This document shows, piece after piece, positions 25,238-53,568 of a stretch of 64,000 nt of DNA. Numbering within the stretch: position 1 is the stretch's first letter; the number at the start of each line of letters is the position of its first letter. Below the pieces are notes generated by a model. It did not search any database. It saw only the letters and a list, made by a program, of their open reading frames with translations, and was not told where the DNA came from. The position numbers and the translations under genes are program-made. Origin of the DNA: Candidatus Zixiibacteriota bacterium (GTDB lineage Bacteria > Zixibacteria > MSB-5A5 > GN15 > JAAZOE01); the NCBI GenBank assembly GCA_043819555.1, contig JBDREQ010000064.1:1-64000 (forward strand), given 5' to 3'.

Positions 25238-25477
25238 CTTCAAAATTGTCTTCAAAACTAATAAATTCAATACGCCCGGCCTAAATGCGCTTACACCCTG
25301 TTTATTATTTTTACGCTTATCCAATATAATCGCTGAAAAATAATTTTGCATTTGATTTTTACCCCTTTCATTCGTTTAAAAAACAAATGAGATAAAATGT
25401 AAAATGGACACTTTACAGACTTGCAAATTATCGTATATTGTGAGGCTTATTTGTCTGAAGAAGAAGGAGTGTTGATT

Positions 25478-28419: not shown

Positions 28420-28456
28420 AAAAGGCCGGTCGTAATAAGCGATCGGCCCTTTTTTA
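28420..28456. terminator. Bidirectional intrinsic terminator
   Basis: GGCCGGTCG...CGATCGGCC stem flanked by A and T runs between convergent genes. Confidence 0.75.
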
Positions 28457-28470
28457 TTCATGTGTGACGT

Positions 28471-29604
28471 TTATGATTCAATAAGTTCAACATTGGCGCG
28501 CGGGACAATCGCGGTTTGACCGTCGTCAAATTCGACTTCCAAAACGCGAGCCTTTGATTCTGATTCCAAAACCTGGAGCGGCGATGGCAATCCTGAAACC
28601 TTACCCAGCATTCCAAAATAAGGGTGGCGGATAACACGAATCGGAGATCCAATTTCAAGACCCTGCTGTTCATAGGCGGCTGAGTCATCCTTTTCTTTCG
28701 GATCACCGCCGAGAGGTACAACTACTTCCGGGCGGATTACGCCGGCTCGAATTTGAGTAGCCCCATTAATACATGCCATTTGCCCATTTCTGGATTTAAG
28801 CAGATCAAATGTTTTTTGAGCCATGTTGATATCGCCAAACCCTTCCGTAACAACCAGAGTAATGCCCAAATCCTCAGAGCCGGTAATGGCTACGCCGATA
28901 TCATATCCCAAAAACTCGCGCAAATCCTTATCATCAAAACCGCCGGTGACAACGCCTTTGGCCCCGACTTTTATAGCCTTTCTAATAGCATTAGCAGTTA
29001 CCCGGGAACCGCCGATGATGATGCAGTCTTTGCAATCATCGGTAATATATTTTTCCTGCAACTGAGTGTAATTATCCGGGACAACAACTTTAATCATCCC
29101 ATGGGTCTCGCCGCCGATGCCAAATATACCCTGTATAAACGCTCCCCAGGCCGCCACAGCCACACCCTCTTCGGGGATCACTTCCATAACTTCGCCTACG
29201 AGATATGCCGTTACTTCAACCGGAATGGGCTCTCCGCGCAGAAGAACCTGACCGGTAATGCTGGATATTGATTCCACTGTACCTTTCAAAGTGGACGCAC
29301 TTGAAGAGGAAAATATTTTCAATCCAAAAAGAGGTTTTGTGCGGGCGATAATTTCGCCCTTTTCAACCGCGTCACCCACCTTTTTGAGCATACATCCCTC
29401 AATATCCTCGGGTGGCAACCCCAATTGGTTGGCGACATTAATAGGTTCGACGTCACCGGGTAAAAATGTCCGGGCAACTACGGTCTCAGGCGAAACTCTG
29501 TCGCCCTTTGAAGCGACAACTTCTCCTTTAAGGGGGAGAATTCTTCTCTTCGTCACAAGCAGCTTTTCGCTGACTTTCAATCCGGGTGTATATGCATGTG
29601 CCAT
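28471..29604 (-). CDS. Conserved-looking hypothetical cytoplasmic protein, GlmL-neighbour (barrel-sandwich-hybrid-like, swivelling-like and KOW-like segments)
   Basis: 'KGDRVSPETVVA', 'KVGDAVEKGEIIA...GTVESI', 'GAKGVVTGG', 'TEGFG', 'GSPIRVIRHPYFGMLGKV'. Confidence 0.75.
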   Translation of the reverse strand: MAHAYTPGLKVSEKLLVTKRRILPLKGEVVASKGDRVSPETVVARTFLPGDVEPINVANQLGLPPEDIEGCMLKKVGDAVEKGEIIARTKPLFGLKIFSSSSASTLKGTVESISSITGQVLLRGEPIPVEVTAYLVGEVMEVIPEEGVAVAAWGAFIQGIFGIGGETHGMIKVVVPDNYTQLQEKYITDDCKDCIIIGGSRVTANAIRKAIKVGAKGVVTGGFDDKDLREFLGYDIGVAITGSEDLGITLVVTEGFGDINMAQKTFDLLKSRNGQMACINGATQIRAGVIRPEVVVPLGGDPKEKDDSAAYEQQGLEIGSPIRVIRHPYFGMLGKVSGLPSPLQVLESESKARVLEVEFDDGQTAIVPRANVELIES

Positions 29605-29637
29605 TCTGTTTTTGCCTTCCTAAAATTACTCCAAATT

Positions 29638-30444
29638 CTAATCGGACTTTTCCTTTGATTTTTTCACGCGAGGCGCGATGACAAAATTCCATATCAAGCC
29701 AAAAGAAATGATCACTAATACTCCGGCAAGCATCCAGTTTTTGAATCGCGTAACCGGTTCAGCCGCCTGTTCCTCAGTCGCCTCAGATGAAGATTCGTTC
29801 AGGTTTTCCGTATTGCCGACTTCCGTAAATTTCAGTTCTTCCTGCGCCTGAGCTTCTTTTAAATTATCAAATGATAGTGATGCGATCACGCTGTCAAAAA
29901 TCGGCTTATTATCTTCAAACGCGGAATCCGGACTATAACAATAGAGAGTCACCAAACCGGCGTCATTCAATTTCATATGCATCAGAAGCTTCATCATCGC
30001 TTCAGGAGTAAAAGCCATTTCCGATATGACTGTAATTGATTTTTCTTTCAAATTTAACCGAGGCTGTCCGGGCAACAAATCAGACATTTTATCCACTACG
30101 CGGCTTTTGTAAATGTCCTTCTTATAACTGTCGGAGATATCTTGAAGCAATGAATCCGCCTCGTGCTTGCCCAATTCTCCGGTAGAGTCGAAGGCAATCA
30201 CGACATAAGCGTCATCCAGATATTGCGATGATATTGGCGCGAAAACTGCTTCATAATTATATGCATCGCTGGAGGCATCAGAAGGCGAAAATATGGCATC
30301 AACAATTCGGTAATCGACTTTTTCCCAATTTTTCGGATAGCTTATCCAGAAACCGCCTTTCCAATTGACATAGTTTCCTGCCAGAGCGCCAATTGGCAAT
30401 ATAAAAACCGCCAATGCTAAAAAAATTATCACCCACTTTTTCAT
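29638..30444 (-). CDS. Hypothetical exported protein with C-terminal membrane anchor
   Basis: Start reassigned to MKKWVIIF (GAAGGA RBS). Signal peptide, 'F.ISYPKNW' PsbP/DcrB-like start, C-terminal TM followed by a basic tail. Confidence 0.7.
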   Translation of the reverse strand: MKKWVIIFLALAVFILPIGALAGNYVNWKGGFWISYPKNWEKVDYRIVDAIFSPSDASSDAYNYEAVFAPISSQYLDDAYVVIAFDSTGELGKHEADSLLQDISDSYKKDIYKSRVVDKMSDLLPGQPRLNLKEKSITVISEMAFTPEAMMKLLMHMKLNDAGLVTLYCYSPDSAFEDNKPIFDSVIASLSFDNLKEAQAQEELKFTEVGNTENLNESSSEATEEQAAEPVTRFKNWMLAGVLVIISFGLIWNFVIAPRVKKSKEKSD

Positions 30445-30469
30445 AAAAATATATCCTTCATATGATCCC

Positions 30470-32323
30470 TTAATCATTATCCAGGGCCTTTTTGGGATAA
30501 ATATCAAGTTCTGTCATCCATTTTTTCAAAGAGCTAATCCTCTGTGAATTATCTTCCGGCAGTACAAATGGATTGCGGCCTCGGCCATCGAGAATAATCC
30601 CAACTACGCCGCCTTTGAGTTCTGTCTCGACTTTTTGTCCGCGTCCTTTGCCGAGATCGAGGTGCTTTAGCGGTTCCAGCGTCGCCTGGGCAGTCATCGG
30701 TAATCCGTTTTCGGCGACGCCGAGCTTGAGCAGCTTAATCTCGCCGAATTCAAGTCTGCCCGAAACAGTTCCGTCAGGCAGATCAATCTTATAACTGAGA
30801 ATCTCTCCGCCTTTTTTAACTTCTCCCGAAGGAGCCACACAGGTTCCGAGATGAATCAAACAGTCTTTTTCAAATACTTCGGTAGCCGCCTGAGGATGCA
30901 ATGTAGAAAGAACGCCCAACTGGGGCATCATAAAGATGGAATCAACCGCGAGGCGAGTTATGCCTTCCGGCTGAAACGCGTCAATCAGCATCAGGGCCGA
31001 TTGCTGCCGGCGGGGAGCGTGAGACAATACGCCGCCCGAACCGATTAGCATGTCCAGAGTCATCATATTGACAATTGTCGAACCGGAACTATCCTGTTCA
31101 AAGGCGTCGGCGATTGTCCTCTGTTTTTGAACGCCTTTCAAAACCGTCGCGAAACTTTTATGCTGTATAAAGGCCAAGCGAAGAGCTTCCTTCGCGACTC
31201 CCTGTTCAAACACTAATTCTTCCATTGATTGAGGAATCGTCGTCGGGCGGATCATTTTATTTTTAACTCGGTTGCGCAGATCGCGCTCATCCATTTCAAA
31301 TGGCACCCAGCGCATGATATTGGGCAGAGTCGCTTCAGCGAACACATTTGAAATTGAGTAACTCATCCCCAAATTAGCCGATACCGTCCGGTTAAAGACG
31401 CCTTCTCCTCCACCGGGACGGAAAACGGAAAACACATCAGTCGTAGCGCCGCCGATATCAACTCCAACGGCTTCCATATTTCCCAGATCGGCAATCGTCT
31501 TGATAATCAATCCCACCGCCCCCGGCGTCGGCATGATCGGAGCATCGGTCCATTTCATCAGTTTGGAATATCCCGGAGCCTGCGCCATGACATGTTCCAT
31601 AAATAAGTTATGAATCTCTTCACGGGCGGGATAGAGGTTTTCCCGCTCTAAAACCGGTCGGAGATTATCGACAATGCCTAAATCTACTTTTTTATCAAGA
31701 GTTTCTTTGACGGCTTTGCGGGCTTCTATATTACCGGCGAAAATAACCGGTAATTTATATCCCGAACCCAGGCGCGGTTTGGGATCGGCTGCGGCAATTA
31801 ATTCCGCGATTTCCGCGACGTGCGATGTGGTTCCACCGTCGATCCCTCCCGATAATAAAATCATATCGGGACGCAAATGACGAATTCTTTCAATTTGCTG
31901 ATGAGGACGGCGCTTGTCGTTGGATGCTATCACATCCATAACGATTGCTCCCGCCCCAAGAGCGGCGCGCTCGGCCGATTCGGCTGTCATAGAACGAACC
32001 ACACCGGCAACCATCATTTGCAATCCGCCGCCGGCCGATGAAGTCGAAATATAAATATCGCATCCCCGGTCCCCGTCTGCGGGCGTGATGATTCTATCGT
32101 TTTCATCGAGCAGAGTTTTATTGGTCAATTCACCGACTTCGGCCACGGCGTTGAGGACCCCCATCGTTACATCCTCAAAAGGCGCTTCAACCGTCGTGGG
32201 CGCCTCGCCTCGTGCAATCAATCGATACTCGCCGTCTCGTTTTTCTATCAGGATTGCCTTGGTAGTCGTTGAACCGCAATCGGTAGCCAAAATTGTATTA
32301 ATCTTTTCCAGATTCTCAAGCAT
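30470..32323 (-). CDS. glmL: Glutamate mutase L / MutL-like actin-fold ATPase
   Basis: 'TDCGSTTTKA', 'SSAGGGLQM', 'PDMILLSGGIDGG', 'MPTPGAV', 'VDIGGATTDVFS', 'RTVSANLGM', 'IGSGGVLSH'. Confidence 0.88.
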   Translation of the reverse strand: MLENLEKINTILATDCGSTTTKAILIEKRDGEYRLIARGEAPTTVEAPFEDVTMGVLNAVAEVGELTNKTLLDENDRIITPADGDRGCDIYISTSSAGGGLQMMVAGVVRSMTAESAERAALGAGAIVMDVIASNDKRRPHQQIERIRHLRPDMILLSGGIDGGTTSHVAEIAELIAAADPKPRLGSGYKLPVIFAGNIEARKAVKETLDKKVDLGIVDNLRPVLERENLYPAREEIHNLFMEHVMAQAPGYSKLMKWTDAPIMPTPGAVGLIIKTIADLGNMEAVGVDIGGATTDVFSVFRPGGGEGVFNRTVSANLGMSYSISNVFAEATLPNIMRWVPFEMDERDLRNRVKNKMIRPTTIPQSMEELVFEQGVAKEALRLAFIQHKSFATVLKGVQKQRTIADAFEQDSSGSTIVNMMTLDMLIGSGGVLSHAPRRQQSALMLIDAFQPEGITRLAVDSIFMMPQLGVLSTLHPQAATEVFEKDCLIHLGTCVAPSGEVKKGGEILSYKIDLPDGTVSGRLEFGEIKLLKLGVAENGLPMTAQATLEPLKHLDLGKGRGQKVETELKGGVVGIILDGRGRNPFVLPEDNSQRISSLKKWMTELDIYPKKALDND

Positions 32324-32586
32324 GTTTCTCTCACTATCCTAAATGTAAAATCCCAAAATTGCCTGTCTGCAAAATCATTTTTACTTCCCAGCCACAAATA
32401 TAGCGGCCAAGAAAAGATTCCAAATATAATCATCAGAGGCAATTTTGTCCACCCCTTTCGGAAGGATTTTATTGGCCAAAAACTACCTCTCCTAATCGAC
32501 AGTTCTGTAACCATTTCCGAGAAATAGCAATATTGGCATGATGTGGGGGAAAAAAGAACTTGCATCGACCGGGTTTCCCTGCCCAC

Positions 32587-33400
32587 GGGCGAGGCGACCT
32601 CGCCCCTACATCAAAAATAAAATCCTTTGCTATTATCATATAAATAGAGTATTATTGATTTGTGCGCGATTGCTTAGTCATTGCGAGTCCCGCGTTAGCG
32701 GGACGTGGCTAACTGTTGAGGGAAAAATCTTGGGCAATAAGGCAATTGAATAAAGATAATTCAAAATTGACGAGTGATGGATGAATAATCTTCTTGTCAA
32801 AAATCAACATTATATCCCGGAAGGATTCCTTAAAGGATTCACCGATTCTGATGGTAGATTGGTGGAAGTCCTTTTGAGGAACAAGAAAATTTATCGGACT
32901 AGCCCTTCTAATTCAATGTCTGAGAAATTTGTATACGAGCATGATAACCTAAGAAGGAATACCTTAGAAAAGTATTTTGCCAAATTAGATAGTAACATTG
33001 TACCAAGACCGGTGGCCCATTGTTCCCGTGAAACGGGAACGGTGGGTTCCCGCTTTTATGCCTATGCACCAACTCCATCAATCTCCAATGGCACCTTGCC
33101 CAGGATTCCGTATTCATATTTAATAATAGAGTAATTGTACGATAATTGCAACAAATTTGGGAATTACTTACGGGCAGACGAGGACGTCTGCCCTTTTGAA
33201 TTTCATTCCGGCAGATGTCAACATCTGCCGGCCACAATTAATATGTGTCATTGTGAGCGAACGAAGTGAGCGTGGCAATCTTGGAATTTTGTGAGATGGA
33301 AACAGATCGCCACGTCGGCCTTCGGCCTTCTCGCGATGACCGAGACGACAACCCGAGGGTTGTCGCTACGAATTTATTGGCGGGATCGCGGGCTTCCGCC
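32587..33400. repeat. Cluster of heterogeneous REP-like palindromic elements
   Basis: About eight GC-rich hairpins, e.g. 32587-32609, 32677-32709, 33016-33046, 33172-33193, 33208-33235, 33247-33340, 33346-33369. Several end in CTAC/CCAC (GTAG/GTGG on the minus strand). Confidence 0.75.
32781..33134 (+). pseudogene. Truncated DUF4238-like gene fragment
   Basis: N-terminal 'KNQHYIPEGFLKGF...LEKYFAKLDS' resembles the DUF4238 N-terminus. After ~33005 the frame runs into a palindrome and loses protein-like character. Confidence 0.65.
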
Positions 33401-33570
33401 CGGCCAAGTCCAACAATTTGCCTCCCCAACTGGAACCTTTTCTTGCGATTTGTTGTATAAATTCTTAATCCGCAAGCGTTTTTTGTTGAATTAAACACAA
33501 CCTTTTTCTATCGTTATCAGTCTGACAGATAAAACATAAACCTTTTTATAGAGATTGTGTACAATAGGTT

Positions 33571-42055: not shown

Positions 42056-42361
42056 TTACATTGTAAACAGCCGTTCACCGGTAATAATTTTCTCCAGCAT
42101 CTTGATGGTTTTTTCTACCGGTGAATTCATTAAATCACAGGTGTTAAAGGTGTGGCGGGTCGCCTCTCGAGGACAGACAAAGTTGGCCTTGCCACGCCCC
42201 CCTCTCTTTTTCTTATGGGTCAGATTATATAACCGCTGATACTCCTTGGCCTTCTCCTTATGCATCTGATAATAGTGGCGCTGATACTCCCTGCGGGCTT
42301 CAGCCGTTGATAATCTACCCTTACTTATTCTTGTGGTAGAAGAATCAGTCTTCCGTGCCAT
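42056..42361 (-). CDS. Small basic hypothetical protein
   Basis: GAGGTG RBS and its own promoter. Arg/Lys/Tyr-rich helix 'RREYQRHYYQMHKEKAKEYQR'. Confidence 0.75.
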   Translation of the reverse strand: MARKTDSSTTRISKGRLSTAEARREYQRHYYQMHKEKAKEYQRLYNLTHKKKRGGRGKANFVCPREATRHTFNTCDLMNSPVEKTIKMLEKIITGERLFTM

Positions 42362-42846: not shown

Positions 42847-43632
42847 TCAAGCCGGCGCCTGTGCTGATTTCTTTTGCAGGTGGCGAATGATTTCAAGTAT
42901 GATTAACAAAACCAAAATCAGGGCAATTGCCCAGACAACGGTTGTCATACCTCCTCCCCCTTCGAATCCGGCCGAGACCCAGTCGCGAATTATTTGAATT
43001 CTTTGAATGAAAAGCGAGATGCGCGCCATAACTGTATATCCAAACGATGCGCCAAAACCAATCATTAGAATATATATTCCAAATTTAGCGACACCGCCAA
43101 ACGTGCCCTTATGAGCGACCGAGAAAAAGAAGTAGAATAATCCGGTAACGACTCCTAAGATTATTACTACGTCTTCAAAGCCAACCCAAAATCCCTCGGC
43201 AAAATGCTGTTTAACATCAAACAGAATATTAACCGTATCGGCCAATTGACGGCTGACCCTGTTCTGCATTTCCGTAGGAATAGCTACACCGGTAGCGATA
43301 CCGATATAAAAGGCAATCGGATAACGAGAAATCCAGGCTTTCTTTTTGGAGAAGCGAAACCACATAAGCACTCCAAGAATTCCCGGGAATAAATACCACC
43401 ATTGTCCTCCCCAGAATTGCCACCAGGGCTGTTCCGGCGTCATCCAGACTTTGTCAAAGAGAGTCGGGATTAAACTGGTATAGACCAGAATCATCGAAAA
43501 GTAACCGGCTGATACGCCGACAAATAAACTCTCGGAAAATTTATAAAACGGATTGTCTTTATACAGAAATGAAAACGTACACAGGGTGAGACAAACACCG
43601 AGAGTCGTCCAAAGAAAAGTTGCCCAATCCAT
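42847..43632 (-). CDS. Cassette copy 3, subunit D: polytopic membrane protein
   Basis: Start reassigned to MDWATFLW (TGATG overlap with C3). Motifs 'SFLYKDN.FYK..E..FVG.SAGY', 'YFFFS..HKG.FG', 'FGASFGYTVM.RISL'. Confidence 0.88.
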   Translation of the reverse strand: MDWATFLWTTLGVCLTLCTFSFLYKDNPFYKFSESLFVGVSAGYFSMILVYTSLIPTLFDKVWMTPEQPWWQFWGGQWWYLFPGILGVLMWFRFSKKKAWISRYPIAFYIGIATGVAIPTEMQNRVSRQLADTVNILFDVKQHFAEGFWVGFEDVVIILGVVTGLFYFFFSVAHKGTFGGVAKFGIYILMIGFGASFGYTVMARISLFIQRIQIIRDWVSAGFEGGGGMTTVVWAIALILVLLIILEIIRHLQKKSAQAPA

Positions 43633-44495
43633 CAGTGCGTCCCTCCTCTCCGCCTGGAAATAAAGAAACCTATATTTCCAATCAAAATAAAGATTATGAT
43701 TGTCATATGGGTCCAAACCTGAACTCTCATGGCCTCCATCGCTGGACCGGGCTTTGCCCCCGGTAATTTTTTACGGAGCAATGTTTCGTATTCAGCGGCA
43801 CCGAGCATTCCACCCATAAGTCCGAATAATTGGCCAGAGCGAAGGTATGGATAATAATCGGCTGCGGATACGCCGGTTAGTCCAGCGGCCAGAAGAGCGT
43901 TATATCTGCCGTTGGCGTAAGAAAGCCAATAATCGATTCCGCTTGTCCCCGTGATTAAAATAATACCTTCGACATTATTGTAATTAACAATGCCGTTCAT
44001 CATTGGTATGCTGTCGGTCAGCGTATTATAATAATCACTGGGGAAGGATAACCTGTAATTCTGCCCCATACTCAGGATGACAATTCCCGGATATGGTTTG
44101 TATCCGAGAAACACGACGTCCTGACCATATGTAAGTTCACGTCCGTATTTGGTTCTCACCGAATCCATAACATCAAGCATTGCTGCTTCAGCCATCCCCG
44201 GACCGTTTGGAGATAACGCGGTAATTATTAGCTTAACCCCTTTTGCCATGGCCTGCTCCATGATAGCATAAGTCATCGGATGCAACTCAGCCATTGAACC
44301 GGGATCATAGTCCACTGCGAAATGGATATACTGGCCTTCCTCAAGATTTTCAACGAAATCATAAATCGAACGAACTTCCGGATTGACACGGAGAGGCGAT
44401 TCGAATTCAATCAGAACAGTAATAATAACGACTGCGGCAAGGATCAGGTATATCCATCTTCTATCGAGTCCTGCTATTTTTTCAAAAAAATTCAT
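43632..44495 (-). CDS. Cassette copy 3, subunit C: TM - periplasmic alpha/beta domain - TM
   Basis: 'DRRWIY', 'DYDPGSMAELHPM', 'YPY..SGQL.GL.GG..GAAEYE', basic C-terminal tail. Confidence 0.88.
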   Translation of the reverse strand: MNFFEKIAGLDRRWIYLILAAVVIITVLIEFESPLRVNPEVRSIYDFVENLEEGQYIHFAVDYDPGSMAELHPMTYAIMEQAMAKGVKLIITALSPNGPGMAEAAMLDVMDSVRTKYGRELTYGQDVVFLGYKPYPGIVILSMGQNYRLSFPSDYYNTLTDSIPMMNGIVNYNNVEGIILITGTSGIDYWLSYANGRYNALLAAGLTGVSAADYYPYLRSGQLFGLMGGMLGAAEYETLLRKKLPGAKPGPAMEAMRVQVWTHMTIIIFILIGNIGFFISRRRGGTH

Positions 44496-44508
44496 ATCTC
44501 ATCCTCCC

Positions 44509-45126
44509 TCAATCGCTTCCCATATAGGTTCGTTCAATACCAAGGATAACCTTGAGAGCAGTTCCCACCATACCCAGGCCGATTCCGATAACGATCGCTC
44601 GTTTGGCGGCCATATTGGGCACGTTTAGAATCCAAGCGGCCAGATCACCGATCGGTTCGCCCAAAAATCCCAGAAATGGATTAAATCTCAACATTATAAT
44701 TATTGCGGCAAGAAGTAAAACTGTTGCCAGAAGAGAGTGTGCCCTGAATGCCCGGAATGCCGCCGAGGCGATAAAAAATGCCAATAGCGAAAACATCGTC
44801 GCGTGAAGGGGCATTATTATATACAGGAAGAAACTACGGAACATATATGATTCCAATCCTCCAAATAGGGCAAAGATGGTCATACTAATTAAGCCGGCAA
44901 GAACAACAATCGCGTATTGCCAGTTTTCCGCTTTTCGTTTTATTTTATTGGCTGAAACTCTGATCAGCGACCATATCCCCAGAGCCAGCGCAAAAATACC
45001 GATAATAATTGTCCATTCCATCACAAATTCATAAACGAATTCCGAGCTGCTGTGAGGAATAAAAAATTGTACCGCCATAAACAGGCCGGTAACAAAGACA
45101 ATCATTAGAGGAATTTCTCTTTTCAT
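44509..45126 (-). CDS. Cassette copy 3, subunit B: polytopic membrane protein
   Basis: 'MKREIP', 'TMFSLLAFFIASAAFRAFRA', 'PN.AA.RAI.IG.GLG', 'GIERTY.G'. Confidence 0.88.
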   Translation of the reverse strand: MKREIPLMIVFVTGLFMAVQFFIPHSSSEFVYEFVMEWTIIIGIFALALGIWSLIRVSANKIKRKAENWQYAIVVLAGLISMTIFALFGGLESYMFRSFFLYIIMPLHATMFSLLAFFIASAAFRAFRAHSLLATVLLLAAIIIMLRFNPFLGFLGEPIGDLAAWILNVPNMAAKRAIVIGIGLGMVGTALKVILGIERTYMGSD

Positions 45127-45139
45127 AATTTAATCCTCC

Positions 45140-46369
45140 CTAATTACCGACCCGAAAAAGGTTCATAAAGCCGTCCCAATTAAAAATAGCCGCAACGACT
45201 CCAAGTAAAATACTAATTATAACTAGTGCTTTTCCGTAGTCCTGACCTTTTAAAGAACCGAGTAAAACCGGTTCGCGACCGAGATATGCCGAAGCTGCAT
45301 AGAGTTCTTCCCCGATCAGGGTATAATCGCAAGCCACAACGAAGAAAGGAATCTGAGTAACCTCATCAGTACCGGAAATCTGAATCGATCCAGTGGCTGA
45401 TCCGGTTTCTGCCAGGATAAGCGATTCGGCGTAAAATTTACCCAAATAAAAATTCGTCGCCGGTTTTTCTCGAACCATGATTCCATTAACACCGCCAACA
45501 TATGCGAACTGCTGATTGGTAACAAAGAAAATATCATCCTCATTGTAAGCGTCCGGACGTCCGGCATCATAGTAAGCGGTCTTGACAGTTTCCTGGGCGA
45601 CCGTCATAACGATCGGATCATAACAGGGAACAATTAGCGAAGTCTGATATTCGGCGACTTTTTTGGCGACGCGGCTGAGGATAGTAAACGATGCGATAGT
45701 CGCGACGTCCGCGGCGGTACCCAATCCCAGAACGTACAAAATCGGTTTTCCCATTTCCGTGGCCCGACCAATTGCTTCGTCAACAGCGTCAATTCCCGCC
45801 AGCGGGCGAACATATAATTCCGCACCAGCCCGAGCTCTCTGGATAAAATACAGAGTAAAGATAGTAAACAGGATTACTGCGGCCGCAACTGGAGTTTTTC
45901 CCCAGTTGTAATACTGCCCCACAGCACGTACCGGCCCAAATGCTTCCGATTCAGTATTGCCATTTTTCTGAAGGGCAACTATTTTATACCAGAAGTCTTT
46001 TTCTCTTGGGAAGTAATCAGCATTATCAGATTCCTTAACGCCGCTATCCCTTTCCGAAGTATTCCCGCGAGCAACATCTTTTCGTTCCGCAAAAGGTTCA
46101 TCCGGTGATTCCGCTCGCAAAATGCGATAACCGATGAAATCTAAATTTTCATCAACATCATCGGCCGATAACTCCCATTCCAGCGATATTGAATGACCGT
46201 TATCATTGGGAGTATCAACTGCATTTACGTTTGTGGGCGGCGCCGGCAGCGCAGATTCAGCGACACTATCGGGGACTGCTTCATCTTGAGCCCATCCGGC
46301 AACGGGAATAACCAGAAGTACCATGATAAACAGTAAAAATTTGTTTTTCATAATGACTCCACTCATCAT
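45140..46369 (-). CDS. Cassette copy 3, subunit A: FN3 + TM + DUF6754-like domain + TM
   Basis: Signal peptide, FN3 'PAPPTNV.A.DTPND.G.SI.LEW', 'GRATEMG.PI', 'ESLILAETG', 'ACDYTLIGEEL.AASAYL', 'GSLKGQD'. Confidence 0.88.
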   Translation of the reverse strand: MMSGVIMKNKFLLFIMVLLVIPVAGWAQDEAVPDSVAESALPAPPTNVNAVDTPNDNGHSISLEWELSADDVDENLDFIGYRILRAESPDEPFAERKDVARGNTSERDSGVKESDNADYFPREKDFWYKIVALQKNGNTESEAFGPVRAVGQYYNWGKTPVAAAVILFTIFTLYFIQRARAGAELYVRPLAGIDAVDEAIGRATEMGKPILYVLGLGTAADVATIASFTILSRVAKKVAEYQTSLIVPCYDPIVMTVAQETVKTAYYDAGRPDAYNEDDIFFVTNQQFAYVGGVNGIMVREKPATNFYLGKFYAESLILAETGSATGSIQISGTDEVTQIPFFVVACDYTLIGEELYAASAYLGREPVLLGSLKGQDYGKALVIISILLGVVAAIFNWDGFMNLFRVGN

Positions 46370-46390: not shown

Positions 46391-47203
46391 CTATTGAATC
46401 AGTCCCAGCCAATCATCCAACAAGAATGTCAAACGTCCGACCAGAAGCGATATTCGTCCCATCACTGTGTATCCGAATGAAGCCCCAAAAGTAATCATCA
46501 GAATCCAAATGCCAAAACGCGAGCTTACACCAAAAGCTCCCTTATGCTCCTTGCTGAAAAAGAAATATATTATTCCGCAAAATACGCCCGTGAAAACTAC
46601 AAGGTTGCTTAGCATTCCGACCAATTGACCGGACGCCGCAAGAGACATATTTGAGAAAAAATGTCCAAAGCCTTGCCAATCGACTAATAAAGGCATAAAC
46701 GTAGATGAAATCTGCGAAATAAAATCTGAGCGCAAGAATCGCGGCAAATTCAAACCGGCCGTGGTTCCGACAATAAATGCCAAAGCCCATCTCGATATCC
46801 AGCCGCCTTTGGGCGACAGTCGCATCAACAGGATTATTCCTAGCGCCGGAGGAATTAAATAATGCCATTCGAATCCGGCAAACGGCACATCAAACCAGTT
46901 ACTTAAAGTTTCCGATACGCGGGGGAATAGATTGCCAACCAATGTCGTCCAAAAACCGAGACACATCCAGTAAGCTGCGGAAACACCAACATACAGATGC
47001 TCGGCGAACTTGTAAAAGGTATTATCCTTATATAAGAAAGACAACACTGCCAAGGTTAAAAATGCCGCGAATGTTACCCAGAAGGCTGACGCAAATGAAT
47101 CGAATGCAGAGGCGCTTTCAGGCGAGCCCAACATTTTAGCCCAAATGCTGAATAAAAACAATACCGCCACAACCGCAACAACGATAACTGGTCCCTTACG
47201 CAT
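46391..47203 (-). CDS. Cassette copy 2, subunit D
   Basis: Same D motifs (SFLYKDN, YFFFSKEHKG, FGASFGYTVMGRISLL). Confidence 0.88.
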   Translation of the reverse strand: MRKGPVIVVAVVAVLFLFSIWAKMLGSPESASAFDSFASAFWVTFAAFLTLAVLSFLYKDNTFYKFAEHLYVGVSAAYWMCLGFWTTLVGNLFPRVSETLSNWFDVPFAGFEWHYLIPPALGIILLMRLSPKGGWISRWALAFIVGTTAGLNLPRFLRSDFISQISSTFMPLLVDWQGFGHFFSNMSLAASGQLVGMLSNLVVFTGVFCGIIYFFFSKEHKGAFGVSSRFGIWILMITFGASFGYTVMGRISLLVGRLTFLLDDWLGLIQ

Positions 47204-48119
47204 CGATATTTTTCCTTCTGCTCCGGAAGTAAGAAATATTCCCGATTACGATAAAAGCCATCACGACAATATGCGCCAGCGTTTGCGGTCCCATCATTCT
47301 CAGGGCGGGCGCTTCGGTATCCTTAAATTGAGGATATCTCTCCATTAATTTGGATTCATATTCAGCGGCACCCTTAACGCCGCCCAAAAGGCCAACTACC
47401 TGCCTGGGATAATAAGGGTATATCTGCGGAGCCACGACAGCCGCCAAACCCGCCGCAATATCAACATTCCCCGGATCACCGATGAATTGTATCCATTCTT
47501 TTGGTCCTGGAAATCCGCCTCCAATCGCAAGTATCAAATCCATATCCGTAGCCGAATTGACATTTTTAAAAATCGGCAATTCGGATAATTCAGTATTATT
47601 ATCATCGGTCGGGTACATTTTCTGGAAATCGGTAACAATGACATTCAATACTCCAACACCGCCAGCCTTAAATCCCAGTGATGTAAAATCTACGCCATAA
47701 ACCGCGTCGGGAAAATCAGTTTTCAAAACTTCTTCAATACTTTCGGTCATAAGCGCGTGGCCGGTAGCCCAAAGAGTCATAAAATACATTTTGTGCCCTT
47801 TTGACATGCAATGCCGGACAAAAGCATTTGCCATCGGGCCCACTTCAGGCTTCATCGCTGGATCAAAATCAAATGATATTAAAATTTTTGAACCGGGCGG
47901 CATGCTATCGATCTTTTCAAATACGGCCCTGACAATGGGTGTTGGTGTCTCTTTAAACTTAATATTGAAAACTATTGCGAAGGCGACGGATAAAAATATA
48001 AACAGGAATATGATGCGGCGATCTATATCTCGGCCCTTCAGAGAATAAATCAGGATGACCAATAGACCAATCAGTACTCCGACGACGGATAGAATTGAGC
48101 CGATATTAGTCATTATCAC
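47196..48119 (-). CDS. Cassette copy 2, subunit C
   Basis: 'DRRIIF', 'DFDPAMKPEVGPM', 'GLLGGVKGAAEYE', 'QTLAH'. Confidence 0.88.
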   Translation of the reverse strand: MIMTNIGSILSVVGVLIGLLVILIYSLKGRDIDRRIIFLFIFLSVAFAIVFNIKFKETPTPIVRAVFEKIDSMPPGSKILISFDFDPAMKPEVGPMANAFVRHCMSKGHKMYFMTLWATGHALMTESIEEVLKTDFPDAVYGVDFTSLGFKAGGVGVLNVIVTDFQKMYPTDDNNTELSELPIFKNVNSATDMDLILAIGGGFPGPKEWIQFIGDPGNVDIAAGLAAVVAPQIYPYYPRQVVGLLGGVKGAAEYESKLMERYPQFKDTEAPALRMMGPQTLAHIVVMAFIVIGNISYFRSRRKNIDA

Positions 48120-48780
48120 TCCCCAGATAAGTTCGTTCCATGCCTAATATCAGCCTGAGGGACATCGATACTACGCCTAAACCGACACCGATTAGAATCG
48201 CCCTTTGCCCCGCCAAATTTGGACCGTTCATAATCCAAACGGCCAAATTTGGAATTTGGAGAACGGAAAATGATTCGGGAATCCAGCCGGTTACGGCCAT
48301 ACCCAACGGTGTCCTGCCCAATAAAATAATAAATGCCGCAATAAGGAGTATTGTGGCCTCTCGATTTTTGGCGCGAAACGCCCTGTACGACGCTGAGGCA
48401 ACAAAGAACGCCAATAGAGCGTACATTGTCGAAGATAACGGCGCGATAATATTATCGAAGATTACTTTTAATGCGGTTCCTTCGGCAATAACCGAAGCCG
48501 CGATGTTTTCACTGCCGACTTTTAGCATGCCCAATATCAGAGTCAGCAAAAACCCGGTGATGGTAACGATTGAAAATCCCCAATCGGGTTTCTTGCGATA
48601 TACTTTGGCGAAATGTATGCGGACCAGGTTTCCTCCGCCGAGGAAAAACGCGAATACCGCGATAATATCAAAAAACAGCGAGAAATCTTCACCCAACGTT
48701 TGAGCGGTCGGGAAAAAAACCGAGAGGATCAGAACAACTCCTACCACTGATGTTATGACAATCGGTATAATGCGTTTCAT
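48106..48780 (-). CDS. Cassette copy 2, subunit B
   Basis: 'STMYALLAFFVASASYRAFRA.N.EATILL', 'AGQRAI', 'GMERTYLG'. Confidence 0.88.
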   Translation of the reverse strand: MKRIIPIVITSVVGVVLILSVFFPTAQTLGEDFSLFFDIIAVFAFFLGGGNLVRIHFAKVYRKKPDWGFSIVTITGFLLTLILGMLKVGSENIAASVIAEGTALKVIFDNIIAPLSSTMYALLAFFVASASYRAFRAKNREATILLIAAFIILLGRTPLGMAVTGWIPESFSVLQIPNLAVWIMNGPNLAGQRAILIGVGLGVVSMSLRLILGMERTYLGSDND

Positions 48781-48798: not shown

Positions 48799-50013
48799 CT
48801 AATTAGTTGCGAATATAGCGTTCAATATATCCAGGAGCCATTGCATTGATTCACTGCCCCAGGCATTAGCGATTGTTGCGGCCATCGTGCCCAGTAAGAT
48901 GGCGCACATTGCCATAATCTTTCCGATATCCTGCCCTTTTAATGATCCCAGCTGTTTGGGATCGCCCGATAGATAAGCCGACGCTGCAAATAATTCTTCA
49001 CCAATTAAAGTGTAATCGCAGGCGGCCACAAAAAACGGCAACTGACCTGGGCGAGCCGTACCGGCGATTTGAATCGCCCCGATACTATTACCGGTCTCGG
49101 CCAGAATCAGGGACTCCGCGAAAAAAGCGCCCAAATACAGACAGGTCGCCGGCTTTTCGCGCACCATGATTCCATTCACAGCCGCTACAAATCCAAACTG
49201 CTCATCGGTGATATACTGAACCATATCGTCGCTGTATCCATCAGGGCGTCCGGCCGACATATATGCTTCTTTTATTGTTTCTCGGGCGGAAGTCATTACC
49301 AATGAGCGCGAGACAGGCATCCTTATTTTACTATCATAGTCGGCAATAACTCGGGCAACTCGCCCCAAAATAGTTATCCCCGCAATTGTTTGAACATCGT
49401 CCATATCCTGAATACCGGCTATAAATAAAATCGGGCGTCCCATTTCGGTTGCGCGGCCAACCGCCTCTTCAATCGCTTCCAAACCCGCGATTTTTCTAAT
49501 AAAAAATTTGCGCCCGCCCTTTACAGACAATATAAAGCCTATGACCGAACCGCAAACGATAAAGGCCAGAATCAGAATATTCAATTGACCAAAATTAAAA
49601 AACTCCCATGTTGCCGCTGCGGGCCGTGATGGTTCCGAAATAGATTCACCGGCCGAATTATACGCCGCGACTTTATACTGATAAGGGATATCGTTTTCTA
49701 ACTCCTGGTCACTATAAGTAGTCTGGCCAATTATTAAATCGGTAATGTGTTCAAAATCGTTGTCCGACTGTGAACGATATAGTTTGTATCCGAGAATATT
49801 ATCGGGATCGTCAGGGGATTTTTCCCAGGTCACGATTAATATTCCACCGGCGTCATATACCGCGTTTTGGGCAGTTACATTAGTCGCCGGCAGAGGCAGA
49901 GAAACAACCAAAGAATCGGCCAATTCATCAATTGGAGTTACTTCCTCGGCGAAAACCGCCAATGAAGATATGAGACAAAACGTAAGTGCCGGCGCTAAGA
50001 ATATCTTATTCAT
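48799..50013 (-). CDS. Cassette copy 2, subunit A (FN3 + DUF6754-like)
   Basis: Start reassigned to MNKIFL (TAATG overlap with D1). FN3 'YQYKVAAYNSAGES'; same conserved C-domain. Confidence 0.88.
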   Translation of the reverse strand: MNKIFLAPALTFCLISSLAVFAEEVTPIDELADSLVVSLPLPATNVTAQNAVYDAGGILIVTWEKSPDDPDNILGYKLYRSQSDNDFEHITDLIIGQTTYSDQELENDIPYQYKVAAYNSAGESISEPSRPAAATWEFFNFGQLNILILAFIVCGSVIGFILSVKGGRKFFIRKIAGLEAIEEAVGRATEMGRPILFIAGIQDMDDVQTIAGITILGRVARVIADYDSKIRMPVSRSLVMTSARETIKEAYMSAGRPDGYSDDMVQYITDEQFGFVAAVNGIMVREKPATCLYLGAFFAESLILAETGNSIGAIQIAGTARPGQLPFFVAACDYTLIGEELFAASAYLSGDPKQLGSLKGQDIGKIMAMCAILLGTMAATIANAWGSESMQWLLDILNAIFATN

Positions 50014-50642
50014 TACGGTAATAATCCGAGCCATTGATCAAAAAGAAAATCAAGTCTTCCAAGCATAAGCGACATACGGCTCATTACCGTATATCCGAAT
50101 GAAGCTCCAAAGGTGGCCATCAAAAACCAAATGCCGACCTTTGCGGTCGCTCCAAAAAGCCCTTTATGTTCTTTACTGAAGAAGAAATAAACAAGGCCAG
50201 AACAGACTCCAACAATAATAATCAAGTTGTTTATAAAGAGACTGGCTCCGCCCCCAAAAAGAGGCACAATTGTTGCCGAAACCTGTTGCATGGCATTAGA
50301 GACAAAGTACATCATCATATATAAACCGGCCGTCGCGCCGACTATGAAAGCAAGCGGCCATCGCGCTATCCAGCCAATCTTATCAAAAAGGCGGGCCAGC
50401 ATAAGAACTCCCAAAATAAAACCGAACCATGGATAAATTAAGGGATCTGTGGCAAAAACTGTTTGTTCCAGAAATTTACTGTACATCATGTCCCAAAAAT
50501 AGACGACAAACCAGTAACCGGCCGAAGCGCCGACAAAGATCGCCTCACTTATCTTGTAGAACACATTGTCTTTATATAAGAAAGAGATAATGCCCAAAGT
50601 CAAAAGAGCAGCTACCCAAATGCCAAATACTTCCCAGCTCAT
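50013..50642 (-). CDS. Cassette copy 1, subunit D
   Basis: Same D motifs. Confidence 0.88.
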   Translation of the reverse strand: MSWEVFGIWVAALLTLGIISFLYKDNVFYKISEAIFVGASAGYWFVVYFWDMMYSKFLEQTVFATDPLIYPWFGFILGVLMLARLFDKIGWIARWPLAFIVGATAGLYMMMYFVSNAMQQVSATIVPLFGGGASLFINNLIIIVGVCSGLVYFFFSKEHKGLFGATAKVGIWFLMATFGASFGYTVMSRMSLMLGRLDFLFDQWLGLLP

Positions 50643-51637
50643 GACTTTTTCTCCTTCTTTTTCTTATCCCGAAGATAGGCGACATTACCAATTATTATAA
50701 AACCGATCACTACGATATGCGCGAACGATTGTGATAATAAAAACGTGGTTGCCTTGCCCATATATTCAGTCAGCAATTCAAATTCAGCCGCGCCTGACAT
50801 GCCTCCCATTAATCCGATTAATTGCCCCGAATTGACATAAGGATAAGCCATTGGAGCCTGAACCGCGGTATTCCCGGCTCCCATTTTTAGATTATATCTA
50901 TCAACGGCCAATTGAACCCATTCAACGGTTCCCGGCTTACCGGCAGAAAGATTTATCGAATAATCTATATTTGTAAAATTCGAAACGTTGCGCACCAATG
51001 GGATCGAATCATAAATTCGTCCATTCATATCGCGCGGGAATGTTGCCCGAATCGATTCGCCCATGCGCAGGATTACGAATTCATTCCCTGATTGAAAACC
51101 AAGATTGCAATAATCAACCCCATCAACCTTCTGCGTCCGCCATTCAGGATTTTCCACAAAAGCCGCCTCAAGCGCAAGCTGCGCCTGCTGCGGACCCATG
51201 GGCCACAAACCCATAATAATTAAATTCAAATCATGCTCGAAGGCGTATTTGATTATGCATTCCGCCATTGGTTGTAATTCTGGCGCGGACGGGGGATCAT
51301 AATCAAAAGAAACCAATATGGTCGAACCCGACTGCAGTTCAACCAATCCATCATAGACGCCTCGAACTTCAGCTGAGATTTGAATGGGAAGGGTGAATTG
51401 CATGAAAAATGGCAGGAGCAGCGAAATGCCAATCAATAAAAATACCATCCGACGCTTAACATATTTCCCTTGCAACGTCCTGACAAAAATAATAACGAAA
51501 ACCAGAAACATCAGGATGATGATGACCGTCGAAACCGTAGTCGAAAACCGAAGCGGTCCCTTCATAAAGTAACAAACAAGAAAAAATATGGCGATTAACA
51601 CCGTTGCAATAATTTCTTTCATCCTGATAGTCATCAA
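50639..51637 (-). CDS. Cassette copy 1, subunit C (extra N-terminal TM helices)
   Basis: 'DYDPPSAPELQPM', 'YPYVNSGQLIGLMGGMSGAAEFE', 'QSFAH'. Confidence 0.88.
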   Translation of the reverse strand: MMTIRMKEIIATVLIAIFFLVCYFMKGPLRFSTTVSTVIIILMFLVFVIIFVRTLQGKYVKRRMVFLLIGISLLLPFFMQFTLPIQISAEVRGVYDGLVELQSGSTILVSFDYDPPSAPELQPMAECIIKYAFEHDLNLIIMGLWPMGPQQAQLALEAAFVENPEWRTQKVDGVDYCNLGFQSGNEFVILRMGESIRATFPRDMNGRIYDSIPLVRNVSNFTNIDYSINLSAGKPGTVEWVQLAVDRYNLKMGAGNTAVQAPMAYPYVNSGQLIGLMGGMSGAAEFELLTEYMGKATTFLLSQSFAHIVVIGFIIIGNVAYLRDKKKKEKKS

Positions 51638-52284
51638 TCACCCCCCAGATACGATCGTTCAAGCCCAATAATAATTCGCAGAGAGTTGGAAACCAATCCG
51701 AGGGCGATACCCATCATAATCGCCCGCTGTCCGGCAGTATTAAGAACATTCATTATCCAGTTAGCCCATTGAGACATTTGATATTTGTAAGGAAGCCAGG
51801 AGGTAATAAGATCCCCTACCGGAACCCGTCCAAGCATTACAAAAAACGCAGCCAAAAGTAATATGGTCGCCTCAAAATTGCGAGCCCTGAAGGCTCGATA
51901 AGAAGCTGAGGCTACAAAAAACGCCAGCAGAGCAAACATAGTCGATGACAACGAACTATAGACATTGATATAAAGCCAGTCAAATGCCGTGCCAGGGTTT
52001 CGAAATTCTATCCCGCCAGCAAATCCGGCAATAGCAACGATTAAAAACGATATTATAATTATAACGGCATATGGCCAATCGGGACGTTTCCTGAAAATTT
52101 TTATGCTGGAAATTTTAATCAGATTCAACGCGCCCAGCCAGATTGCGAAAGCGGCCACAATTAAAAACCAATCGGTAAACCATTTCTCAAATTCATAAAA
52201 TGGCCAATGCGGTATGAAATAGGATATAACATACGCAACACCGACTACAAAGGTTATTATCAGGGGTATTTCTCGTCTCATCAA
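51634..52284 (-). CDS. Cassette copy 1, subunit B
   Basis: Same B motifs. Confidence 0.88.
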   Translation of the reverse strand: MMRREIPLIITFVVGVAYVISYFIPHWPFYEFEKWFTDWFLIVAAFAIWLGALNLIKISSIKIFRKRPDWPYAVIIIISFLIVAIAGFAGGIEFRNPGTAFDWLYINVYSSLSSTMFALLAFFVASASYRAFRARNFEATILLLAAFFVMLGRVPVGDLITSWLPYKYQMSQWANWIMNVLNTAGQRAIMMGIALGLVSNSLRIIIGLERSYLGGD

Positions 52285-52308: not shown

Positions 52309-53568
52309 TTAATGGGCGGCAAACCACTCCGAGATATTCCAATCCGGGTTAAGCGCCAGTAAGATTACACCAATTATAATCGCTGTCAGACAAAGCACTT
52401 TGCCTACGTCCTGCCCCTTAAGCGATCCCAAGAGTTTTGGTTCGCCTGTCAAATATGCCGACGCCGCAAAAAGTTCCTCGCCAATTAAAGTGTAGTCGCA
52501 GGCCGCGACAAAGAACGGCAATTGTGCCGGCATGGCCGTGCCCGCTATTTGAATGGCGCCAATGCTGTTACCAGTTTCAGCCATGATTAGTGATTCAGCG
52601 AAGAAGGTACCGATCAGAAAAACTGTCGCCGGTTTTTCACGCACAAATAATCCGTCAATTGCTGCAGCATATCCGAATTGATCATCAGTAAGATATCTTA
52701 CCTGATCTTCAATAAAAGAATCCGGCCGACCGGCTTTGCTGTATGCTTCTTTGACGACTTCTTTGGCCGTGACCATAACCATAGAACGGCAAACCGGTAC
52801 ATCTATTCGGGTATCGTTTTCGGCGGCAATCGTCGCAACCCGACCCAAAATTGACATACTGGCAAGGGTTTGAACATCATCCATATCATGAATGCCCGGA
52901 ACATAATATATTGAACGCCCCATTTCCGTGGCACGTCCCACCGCATTCTCCACTTCTTCAATACCGGCAATTTTCCGGATATAAAATTTCTTCCCGCTTT
53001 TGGCCGCAAAGATAAAATAAATAATTGAGGATGACAGCAGGATCGTACCGATAAAAATTACAAAGCGACTCATATTAAACCATTGAGAGACAGATTTCAC
53101 AGGTCCAATCACGGCAGAACTACTCGATGTCGACCATAAAACATTCCCGCCCGTTTTGACAAAATTCACAGTAATGATTTTATAATAGTATTCCGTATCG
53201 GTAGGCGCCTGAAAATCAGTAAACGTAGTATGCCCTTGCGGGGTACTGCCCAGTTCCGTGAATTCTCCTTCCGGCGATGTACTGCGTAATATCTTATATT
53301 CCATTACATTGCCGCCTTCATAGTCGTCTGGCGATCTTTCCCAGTTGATTACAATGGCATCACCCTTATCATTTGCATTGTCAAAGGCGTTAATATCAAA
53401 GGCAGGCTGCGGGGTTAGTTCCTCCAAAAACGACGAATCATAAACCTGTTGGGCTAGAGTATCTGTATTTGATTCAACCGGTTCGGATTGAGCTATAGCT
53501 TTTGGTGAGGATAGTACTAATGAAAATAGAACGGCATAAAAAGAAAAAACACTAAGTCGTTTAAGCAT
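52309..53568 (-). CDS. Cassette copy 1, subunit A (FN3 + DUF6754-like)
   Basis: Signal peptide, FN3 'AFDNANDKGDAIVINWERSPDD...EYYYKI', conserved C-domain. Confidence 0.88.
   Translation of the reverse strand: MLKRLSVFSFYAVLFSLVLSSPKAIAQSEPVESNTDTLAQQVYDSSFLEELTPQPAFDINAFDNANDKGDAIVINWERSPDDYEGGNVMEYKILRSTSPEGEFTELGSTPQGHTTFTDFQAPTDTEYYYKIITVNFVKTGGNVLWSTSSSSAVIGPVKSVSQWFNMSRFVIFIGTILLSSSIIYFIFAAKSGKKFYIRKIAGIEEVENAVGRATEMGRSIYYVPGIHDMDDVQTLASMSILGRVATIAAENDTRIDVPVCRSMVMVTAKEVVKEAYSKAGRPDSFIEDQVRYLTDDQFGYAAAIDGLFVREKPATVFLIGTFFAESLIMAETGNSIGAIQIAGTAMPAQLPFFVAACDYTLIGEELFAASAYLTGEPKLLGSLKGQDVGKVLCLTAIIIGVILLALNPDWNISEWFAAH

Follow-up and report, generated by a model that had tools for sequence, protein, structure and literature searches.

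Group II energy-coupling factor (ECF) transporters and some ATP-binding cassette (ABC) importers share one ATPase, a single cytoplasmic module being combined with several separately encoded membrane cassettes. GlmL/MutL (NF040745, TIGR01319), which is an accessory protein of the coenzyme-B12-dependent glutamate (methylaspartate) mutase, and Or-4 (NF040744) belong to the family PF13941; passages of one paper term MutL/GlmL the reactivation chaperone of glutamate mutase (PMC4682846), and passages of another count the 'glutamate mutase' family among the actin-like families (PMC5597319). As a third describes it, the alpha subunit of glycerol dehydratase reactivase unites an Hsp70-like ATPase domain and a swiveling domain, and the protein works through the swapping of subunits (PMC7674605). 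Here, we analysed a stretch of 64,000 nt from a Candidatus Zixiibacteriota bacterium (assembly GCA_043819555.1, contig JBDREQ010000064.1, positions 1 to 64,000; hereafter the window), which encodes a long PF13941 protein (the ATPase), a middle protein and a partner protein, as well as three copies of a four-gene membrane cassette, A-B-C-D. The best explanation of the data is that the three genes are unrelated to B12 mutases and represent the cytoplasmic ATPase module of an eight-part inner-membrane system. Positions 28471-32323 hold three open reading frames (ORFs), all on the minus strand, of 617, 289 (counted from a TTG) and 377 residues:

30470..32323, minus strand: ATPase gene, long-form member of the GlmL/MutL family, 617 residues (Pfam PF13941 match)
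29638..30444, minus strand: middle gene, exported protein with a C-terminal membrane anchor, about 268 residues (hydropathy; ORF open from the TTG at 30507)
28471..29604, minus strand: partner gene, 377 residues (structure model and fusions to the ATPase)

Only 25 nt separate the ATPase and middle genes and 33 nt the middle and partner genes, and the three therefore fit one operon, as a preliminary description made from the sequence alone had proposed for a GlmL-like gene, an exported membrane-anchored protein and a 377-residue protein. The ATPase matches PF13941 with 436.9 bits (threshold 27) over residues 11-488 and model positions 1-450. The last 128 residues matched no Pfam family; this stretch of about 130 residues corresponds to the long C-terminal extension first reported for this 617-residue protein. 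Motifs that we take to be phosphate-1 (D15-K22), phosphate-2 (D289-D296) and adenosine (S429-G431) are invariant or at least 90% conserved among 58 homologues, and these ASKHA ATP motifs are also present in canonical GlmL and in Or-4. Judged by its sequence, the protein is a long PF13941 member with intact ATP motifs, a putative ASKHA-type ATPase.

The ATPase differs from GlmL/MutL in several respects: it is about 150 residues longer, it is tied to the partner and the membrane cassette rather than flanked by glmS and glmE, and its long form is far more conserved across lineages. It scores below all three NCBIfam cut-offs (GlmL NF040745, 225.8 against 475; Or-4 NF040744, 216.2 against 600; TIGR01319, 169.5 against 204), while a canonical GlmL used as a control reached 515.8 against the NF040745 cut-off of 475. 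Identity to the canonical GlmL of a glmS-glmL-glmE operon is 29% (497 columns), and in seven distant loci the ATPase is 59-67% identical to the window protein, compared with 30-60% for A-D. In a FastTree phylogeny of 58 sequences, the long forms lie on short branches, distant from two canonical GlmL; because only three mutase-linked sequences are included, one of them poorly placed (support 0.17 at the long-form node when rooted on it), the tree shows a long branch and a slow rate, but neither a root nor an order of events. We regard the ATPase as a previously unrecognised form within a known family; the system as a whole matches no known machine type. Long PF13941 proteins of a second class, whose partner lacks the KOW domain and is either fused (824-933 residues) or separate, were seen in L087-L090, L197, L198 and L202-L205; no cassette was found near them in the four longer loci viewed, several other loci being short.

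The three membrane cassettes of the window are arranged as follows:

52309..53568, minus strand: A1, DUF6754 protein with signal peptide, extracytoplasmic part, transmembrane helix, cytoplasmic Rossmann-type domain and a further transmembrane helix (PF20539, 397.9 bits)
51634..52284, minus strand: B1, polytopic membrane protein (conserved family; no match above cut-off)
50639..51637, minus strand: C1, membrane protein with a probable extracytoplasmic domain of about 210 residues (family alignment and inferred topology)
50013..50642, minus strand: D1, polytopic membrane protein with two GxSxGY-like motifs (family alignment)
48799..50034, minus strand: A2, DUF6754 protein with an fn3 domain (PF20539, 401.7 bits; fn3, 30.6 bits)
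46391..48780, minus strand: rest of the second cassette, B2 (48106-48780), C2 (47196-48119) and D2 (46391-47203), paralogues
45140..46369, minus strand: A3, DUF6754 protein (PF20539, 400 bits)
42847..45126, minus strand: rest of the third cassette, B3 (44509-45126), C3 (43632-44495) and D3 (42847-43716), paralogues

B2, C2 and D2 are 48, 31 and 46% identical to B1, C1 and D1, respectively, and B3, C3 and D3 are 38, 37 and 40% identical to them. Hydropathy and Lys/Arg counts suggest that the A domain is cytoplasmic, the C domain extracytoplasmic, and B and D polytopic. Mean column identity is highest in A (57%), followed by D (42%), C (41%) and B (35%), and the cytoplasmic domain of A is the best-conserved part among the cassette paralogues, while its outer part ranges from almost none to more than 600 residues. 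B, C and D matched no family above cut-off, and homology between A and C or between B and D (as inverted repeats) was not significant in hhalign. B subunits with a soluble insertion of 280-390 residues in the middle loop occur in L146:4332-5882 and L154:2941-4794, the latter scanned without a Pfam match.

The genome (G000, 97% complete) carries one PF13941 gene, one partner gene and four DUF6754 genes in four full cassettes. The fourth cassette lies on another contig (G000:C66:36156-39339, L006), with an A of 324 residues that is nearly devoid of an outer domain; short-A cassettes of this kind recur in many relatives. Adjacent, unannotated genes for F5, which joins a soluble domain to two transmembrane helices, and F2 (159 residues) lie at G000:C34:2228-3183 (L188). 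In other lineages F5 and F2 precede the ATPase gene, and they are probably core parts of the system; these two core genes and the fourth cassette were missed in the first reading of the locus.

Co-occurrence separates the long form from glutamate mutase. With GlmE counted as matches above cut-off, PF13941 was found in 149 of the 151 genomes of the window's phylum, mostly as a single copy, and GlmE in 8. Whole-genome searches of the genomes of 50 of the 80 closest loci detected DUF6754 in 48, in 1-6 copies (3-6 copies in 42 of the 50). Among 201 genomes sampled from the Planctomycetota group, PF13941 occurs in 57 and DUF6754 in 55 (53 with both, 4 with PF13941 only, 2 with DUF6754 only and 142 with neither; six sub-threshold PF13941 matches were omitted); the resulting phi of 0.93 overstates the evidence because related genomes are not independent, and the weight rests on the agreement of three phyla. 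Of the 55 genomes with DUF6754, 54 also encode subunit D, which was detected in none of the others sampled. Only 2 of the 201 genomes encode GlmE, none of them among the 53 with both PF13941 and DUF6754; one (G359) belongs to the PF13941-only group and has a short PF13941 gene adjoining GlmE. In the 121 genomes of the Fibrobacterota-group sample, PF13941 was detected in four and DUF6754 in two, the latter being exactly the long-form carriers, while the other two carry a short form within glmS-glmL-glmE. The long clade thus tracks DUF6754 and subunit D, not GlmE, the outcome on which the preliminary description had made its proposal depend. A search for PF09043 (ornithine/lysine aminomutase) gave no match in 151 and in 1 genomes, nor in any control genome. 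In L173-L176 (G077, G061, G062 and G064), GlmE matches lie in open frames of about 650 residues, possibly fused glutamate mutase S and E, and the only PF13941 gene there is the long form.

These distributions bear on the alternative that the ATPase is a B12-mutase accessory acting in trans, for example on methylmalonyl-CoA mutase-like proteins, its linkage to the cassettes being incidental. Membership of PF13941 and the reactivation role ascribed to MutL/GlmL in passages of PMC4682846 would fit such a helper, as would the B12-binding proteins on other contigs of the genome. There are six B12-binding-domain matches in G000, none of them on this contig, in agreement with the initial remark that no mutase or B12-binding gene is nearby. 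A genome search found no GlmE. Three of the B12-binding loci, viewed for ORF starts and neighbours, read as methylmalonyl-CoA mutase-like and methyltransferase corrinoid proteins, and some matches were assigned to radical-SAM proteins by size only. With scores under the GlmL and Or-4 cut-offs, 29% identity to canonical GlmL, no GlmE in most carriers and a tight co-occurrence and operon order with A-D, a helper role of this kind is very improbable.

Gene order gives a concordant picture. Among 80 genome loci, the partner gene was present in 64 and a cassette gene in 39 (within 2 kb in 36); for the 43 loci flanked by 4 kb or more on each side, the figures are 37 and 27 (within 2 kb in 24). In 80 metagenome loci found via the partner, the ATPase gene was detected in 55 and a cassette gene in 31, always at most 2 kb away, with 10 of these among the 22 long loci. 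Distant lineages (L040, L145 and L171) encode a single operon, F5-F2-ATPase-partner-A-B-C-D. The partner is fused to the ATPase in P0130 (995 residues), P0216 (1003 residues), L150 and L168, and full-length fusions recur in two clusters with several members each. In the window, the nearest cassette gene (end at 42847) lies 10.5 kb from the ATPase gene on the same strand, with tolQ-tolR-tonB/tolA-tolB-pal-ybgF (opposite strand), ppdK and a small gene of 101 residues in between, matching the spacing of about 10 kb across tol-pal and ppdK given at the outset; tolQ, tolR and ybgF were named by sequence and position. L007, L027, L190 and L192 share this order. Because sister families keep the module head-to-head with the cassettes (cassettes facing ATPase-middle-partner-tolQ in L010, L024, L017 and L108), the gap of 10 kb is a local rearrangement in the window's family. 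In G440, A lies beside the ATPase and partner genes, with D about 2 Mb away.

Given the co-occurrence, the synteny, the ATPase-partner fusions, the intact ATP motifs and the presence of one ATPase for four cassettes in this genome, F5, F2, the ATPase, the partner, A, B, C and D very probably form one system. The preliminary description had grouped the GlmL-like ATPase, its partner and A-D around one shared module: this stands for co-occurrence, fusion and synteny and, in this genome, for one ATPase gene serving several cassettes, but the middle protein is not core, and sharing is not universal, because some Planctomycetota-group genomes hold a second cluster with its own ATPase. Its remark that DUF6754 genes adjoin glmL-like genes in anaerobes was right as to adjacency, which is not limited to obviously anaerobic lineages, since it is common in the Planctomycetota-group sample. 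The middle gene, whose ORF is open from the TTG (29638-30507, 289 residues), likely starts at the ATG at 30444, behind a Shine-Dalgarno-like AAGGA, giving 268 residues with hydrophobic stretches near both termini, of which the C-terminal one precedes a basic tail; a PsbP match was sub-threshold (E 0.0065). It occurs in 39 of the 80 genome loci and 9 of the 80 metagenome loci and is accessory and lineage-restricted.

The partner model (predicted local distance difference test score, pLDDT, 92.8) shows two nested barrel-sandwich-hybrid (lipoyl-like) domains, a swivel domain at residues 154-300 and a KOW/SH3 domain. The swivel has the phosphohistidine fold common to phosphotransferase system (PTS) enzyme I, PPDK and rifampin phosphotransferase (Z 9.7-10.1), with the enzyme I domain VIA matching at Z 10.1 (root-mean-square deviation, rmsd, 2.5; 101 residues aligned) and rifampin phosphotransferase at Z 9.7-9.9. 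The hybrid domain matched RnfC (Z 7.9) and NqrA (Z 7.7), both alignments being limited to residues 48-127, and KOW domains matched at Z 8.2-8.4. Across 131 partner sequences, no His was conserved at 80% or more, and no conserved Lys or Cys was found. It is in the swivel and KOW domains that conserved polar residues concentrate. A hydrophobic hairpin forms the end of the second hybrid domain; its tip residues L92, F93, G94, L95 and F98 are conserved at 54, 74, 88, 68 and 58%, and Lys 96 sits in a column with 90% gaps. This hairpin may be in contact with the membrane. For neither the partner nor A did Foldseek find a match at E 0.001 or better, a search of the Atlas returned only the partner's own unnamed clusters and no usable match for the A domain, and no partner homologue was found in a plasmid collection.

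These phosphocarrier-like folds raise the possibility of a membrane phosphoryl-transfer enzyme, in which the ASKHA protein would be a kinase or an amide-activating enzyme akin to hydantoinase A or oxoprolinase, and the swivel would deliver either a phosphoryl group or the substrate to A, which would serve group translocation or the modification of a lipid or envelope polymer. The ATPase has weak matches to Hydantoinase_A and Hydant_A_N, the best partner folds are those of PTS enzyme I and rifampin phosphotransferase, and the A domain resembles GT-B half-domains such as LpxB and MurG (Z 9.3-10.2). Unlike PTS phosphohistidine domains, however, the swivel has no conserved His, and the hairpin tip of the partner lacks the conserved Lys typical of biotinyl or lipoyl carriers; without either residue, it is not a phospho- or lipoyl-carrier of a known type. 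Asp residues opening the helix that corresponds, by a sequence-based assignment, to the His helix of enzyme I are just 41-60% conserved, and the GT-B matches are generic, so that phosphoryl transfer seems rather improbable. In metagenome loci L143, L145, L167 and L171, the operon follows glycine-cleavage (gcv) genes, with a lipoate-ligase-family gene downstream in L143. Lipoylation of the partner, an idea taken from these neighbours, was ruled out by the absence of a conserved Lys.

The pairing of an ASKHA ATPase with a swivel-type domain, here in two genes or one fusion, recalls the glycerol/diol dehydratase reactivase, and an envelope-remodelling or assembly platform would build on this likeness: the ATPase would be a chaperone-like switch, as in the reactivase, or a PilM/EpsL-like scaffold, which assembles or remodels membrane complexes or passes force to the envelope via the fn3-containing outer part of A, no solute being moved. 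Besides the recreated pairing, the variable length of A's outer part, the conservation of the ATPase over distant lineages (59-67%) and the adjacency of tol-pal or ExbBD genes in some lineages are in its favour. The partner nevertheless differs from the reactivase, as its swivel is C-terminal or in trans and accompanied by lipoyl-like and KOW domains, the clients are apparently membrane proteins, and reactivase chains are absent among the 50 partner fold matches listed. Adjacency to tol-pal is confined to one group of loci, and the four to six stable cassette paralogues suit specificity units better; we consider the platform unlikely.

In the model of A2 (residues 140-411, pLDDT 93.1), a six-stranded Rossmann-type domain lies between two membrane helices. 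Its best match was Sir2 (Z 11.9, rmsd 3.4, 139 residues aligned), followed by the GT-B half-domains, RCK domains (Z 9.3-9.6), transhydrogenase domain III (Z 9.5) and the carbon monoxide dehydrogenase (CODH) epsilon subunit (Z 9-10). Transhydrogenase domain III, Sir2 and CODH epsilon constitute one fold group. Neither SIS-like nor B12-binding-like domains were among the 50 matches listed. Like transhydrogenase domain III and the RCK/KTN domains of K+ transporters (Z 9-9.6), the A domain is a membrane-attached cytoplasmic Rossmann-type domain, but the likeness is at fold level only (4-13% identity), and the A domain sits between two membrane helices and has a predicted contact with the ATPase. 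Invariant polar residues in or beside predicted membrane helices comprise D230 and K233 in A, H263 and N274 in C, and E33, T185 and R189 in D.

Such residues would be expected to line the channel of an ion-translocating energy converter, in which ATP turnover would be coupled to H+ or Na+ movement and the A domain would gate a channel, as transhydrogenase domain III does, past the invariant His, Asn, Asp, Lys and Glu. The resemblance of A to transhydrogenase domain III, Sir2, CODH epsilon and RCK (Z 9-12), the near-universal and mostly single ATPase gene of the phylum, and the similarity of the partner's lipoyl-like domain to RnfC/NqrA are consistent with such a converter. However, the fold matches of A do not stand clear of unrelated Rossmann folds, and several divergent cassettes per genome would be unusual for an ion pump. 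Compared with RnfC and NqrA, the partner has a swivel fold at its centre and no conserved Cys, and FMN-binding and Fe-S domains of the Rnf/Nqr kind were not found in it; as A has a single conserved Cys, no redox cofactor is evident. An ion converter is accordingly a poor candidate and, in our judgement, quite unlikely.

The preliminary description had suggested a complex prediction for GlmL, its partner and the cytoplasmic domain of A. Three chains were used: ATPase residues 9-598, partner residues 150-377 (hybrid domains omitted) and A2 residues 177-358 as the scored partner. The contact was predicted with scores of 0.54, 0.54 and 0.50, against 0.00 in all three controls, one of them with the ATPase replaced, and the runs had a contact agreement of at least 87% and a pLDDT of the scored partner of at least 77. 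Of 157 solved pairs, 116 reach the score mark used, as do 2 of 215 mismatched ones; only 18 of the 157 reach it at or below 0.60, where both mismatches also lie. The models thus give weak support to the cytoplasmic domain of A as the docking site of the ATPase.

Considering the whole, ATP-driven solute transport through interchangeable cassettes is the reading that we prefer, tentatively and with a little less than even confidence; that the module energises a transporter is something we infer, and peptides or amino acids as the solute are a guess. The ATPase and partner would be the two subunits of a stable motor, which the hydrophobic hairpin tip of the partner probably keeps at the membrane, with the ATPase docking on the cytoplasmic Rossmann/DHS-like domain of A. 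The ATP cycle would shift this domain and the long second helix of A, opening and closing a path made up of B and D together with the membrane helices that A and C contribute, and the solute would be captured by the extracytoplasmic domain of C together with the variable outer part of A. The cassettes would then be interchangeable specificity units on one common motor. As in Group II ECF transporters and shared-ATPase ABC importers, one cytoplasmic ATPase module would serve several separately encoded membrane cassettes, but the ATPase is of ASKHA type rather than a P-loop ABC protein, and no EcfT, S-component, ABC permease or P-loop ABC match was found in the 15 genes by Pfam and NCBIfam.

Several observations weigh against transport or against a single system. 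No subunit resembles a known transporter by sequence: B shows only a TMD0_ABC match below threshold, seen in 21 of 63 members, and PDB searches with profiles of A, B, C and D, or with the ATPase sequence, gave no match at E < 0.5. The modelled A domain has generic fold matches, none standing clear, and the stand-alone structure models cover the partner and A. No solute transporter driven by an ASKHA ATPase is known to us. The neighbours in the 27 loci viewed (gcv and lipoate ligase, a TonB receptor with ExbBD, pepT with an OPT transporter, and housekeeping genes) give no consistent substrate. Related genomes, as said, are not independent data points, and some genomes break the pattern: in G489, the ATPase and partner are present and A, C and D were not found, and in G370 and G373 the cassette is present and the ATPase and partner were not found. 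Other irregular cases are G014, which has a truncated partner and no cassette, G515, with a fragment where a contig ends, and G171 (partner and cassettes, ATPase not found, in an assembly of 340 contigs). In G134 (L187, G134:C1:1104872-1105954), the C-terminal end of the ATPase is joined in frame to the start of an acyl-CoA dehydrogenase, and its apparent lack of the ATPase is probably due to misassembly.

A broader and still more tentative proposal is that of a new class of primary-active machine beside ABC/ECF, P-type and rotary ATPases, in which an actin/Hsp70-fold ATPase and a swivel-arm partner would drive solutes or ions through interchangeable membrane cassettes of four subunits each; Zixibacteria-like lineages would have this machine as a core feature, it would be widespread in other little-cultured phyla, and the mutase-associated GlmL would be a derived side branch. 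The system itself is real and very conserved, and no paper describing it or DUF6754 was found by accession or name, most subscription journals and all supplements being outside the scope of that search. Nearly every genome of the window's phylum has it (149 of 151), as do roughly a quarter of those searched in the Planctomycetota group. In the lineages sampled, the majority of PF13941 genes are not mutase helpers, and annotations as 'glutamate mutase L' therefore wrongly imply glutamate fermentation. If the ATPase does power transport, this would be a new mode of coupling ATP to a membrane process; otherwise, an eight-part complex remains, with membrane subunits for which sequence comparison finds no counterpart among solved structures. 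Planctomycetota include cultured, genetically tractable members, which opens the system to experiment.

Two further features flank the operon:

32423..32451, minus strand: sigma70-like promoter match, about 100 nt upstream of the ATPase gene (10 of 12 consensus positions)
28424..28448, strand-neutral: hairpin between the partner gene and a convergent peptidase gene, probable terminator (10-bp stem, T-run on the plus strand)

The promoter call is a consensus match alone, with 18 promoter-like sites found against 9.1 expected in shuffled sequences. Between the ATPase gene and tolQ (32324-33570), a DUF4238 fragment (32781-33134) and a hairpin (33172-33193) were found, and this interval looks like a decayed insertion at a rearrangement junction. 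The 101-residue gene (42056-42361, minus strand) encodes a small basic protein without a Pfam match, and its position between the cassettes and ppdK is kept in L007, L010, L024, L027 and L190. The convergent gene (25421-28401, plus strand) encodes an M28 peptidase that also carries fn3 and, at the C terminus, a sorting domain, and it is broken into two ORFs of 326 and 660 residues; because the relatives L027, L189, L190 and L192 carry one ORF of about 970-1050 residues, a frameshift or sequence error in the window is likely.

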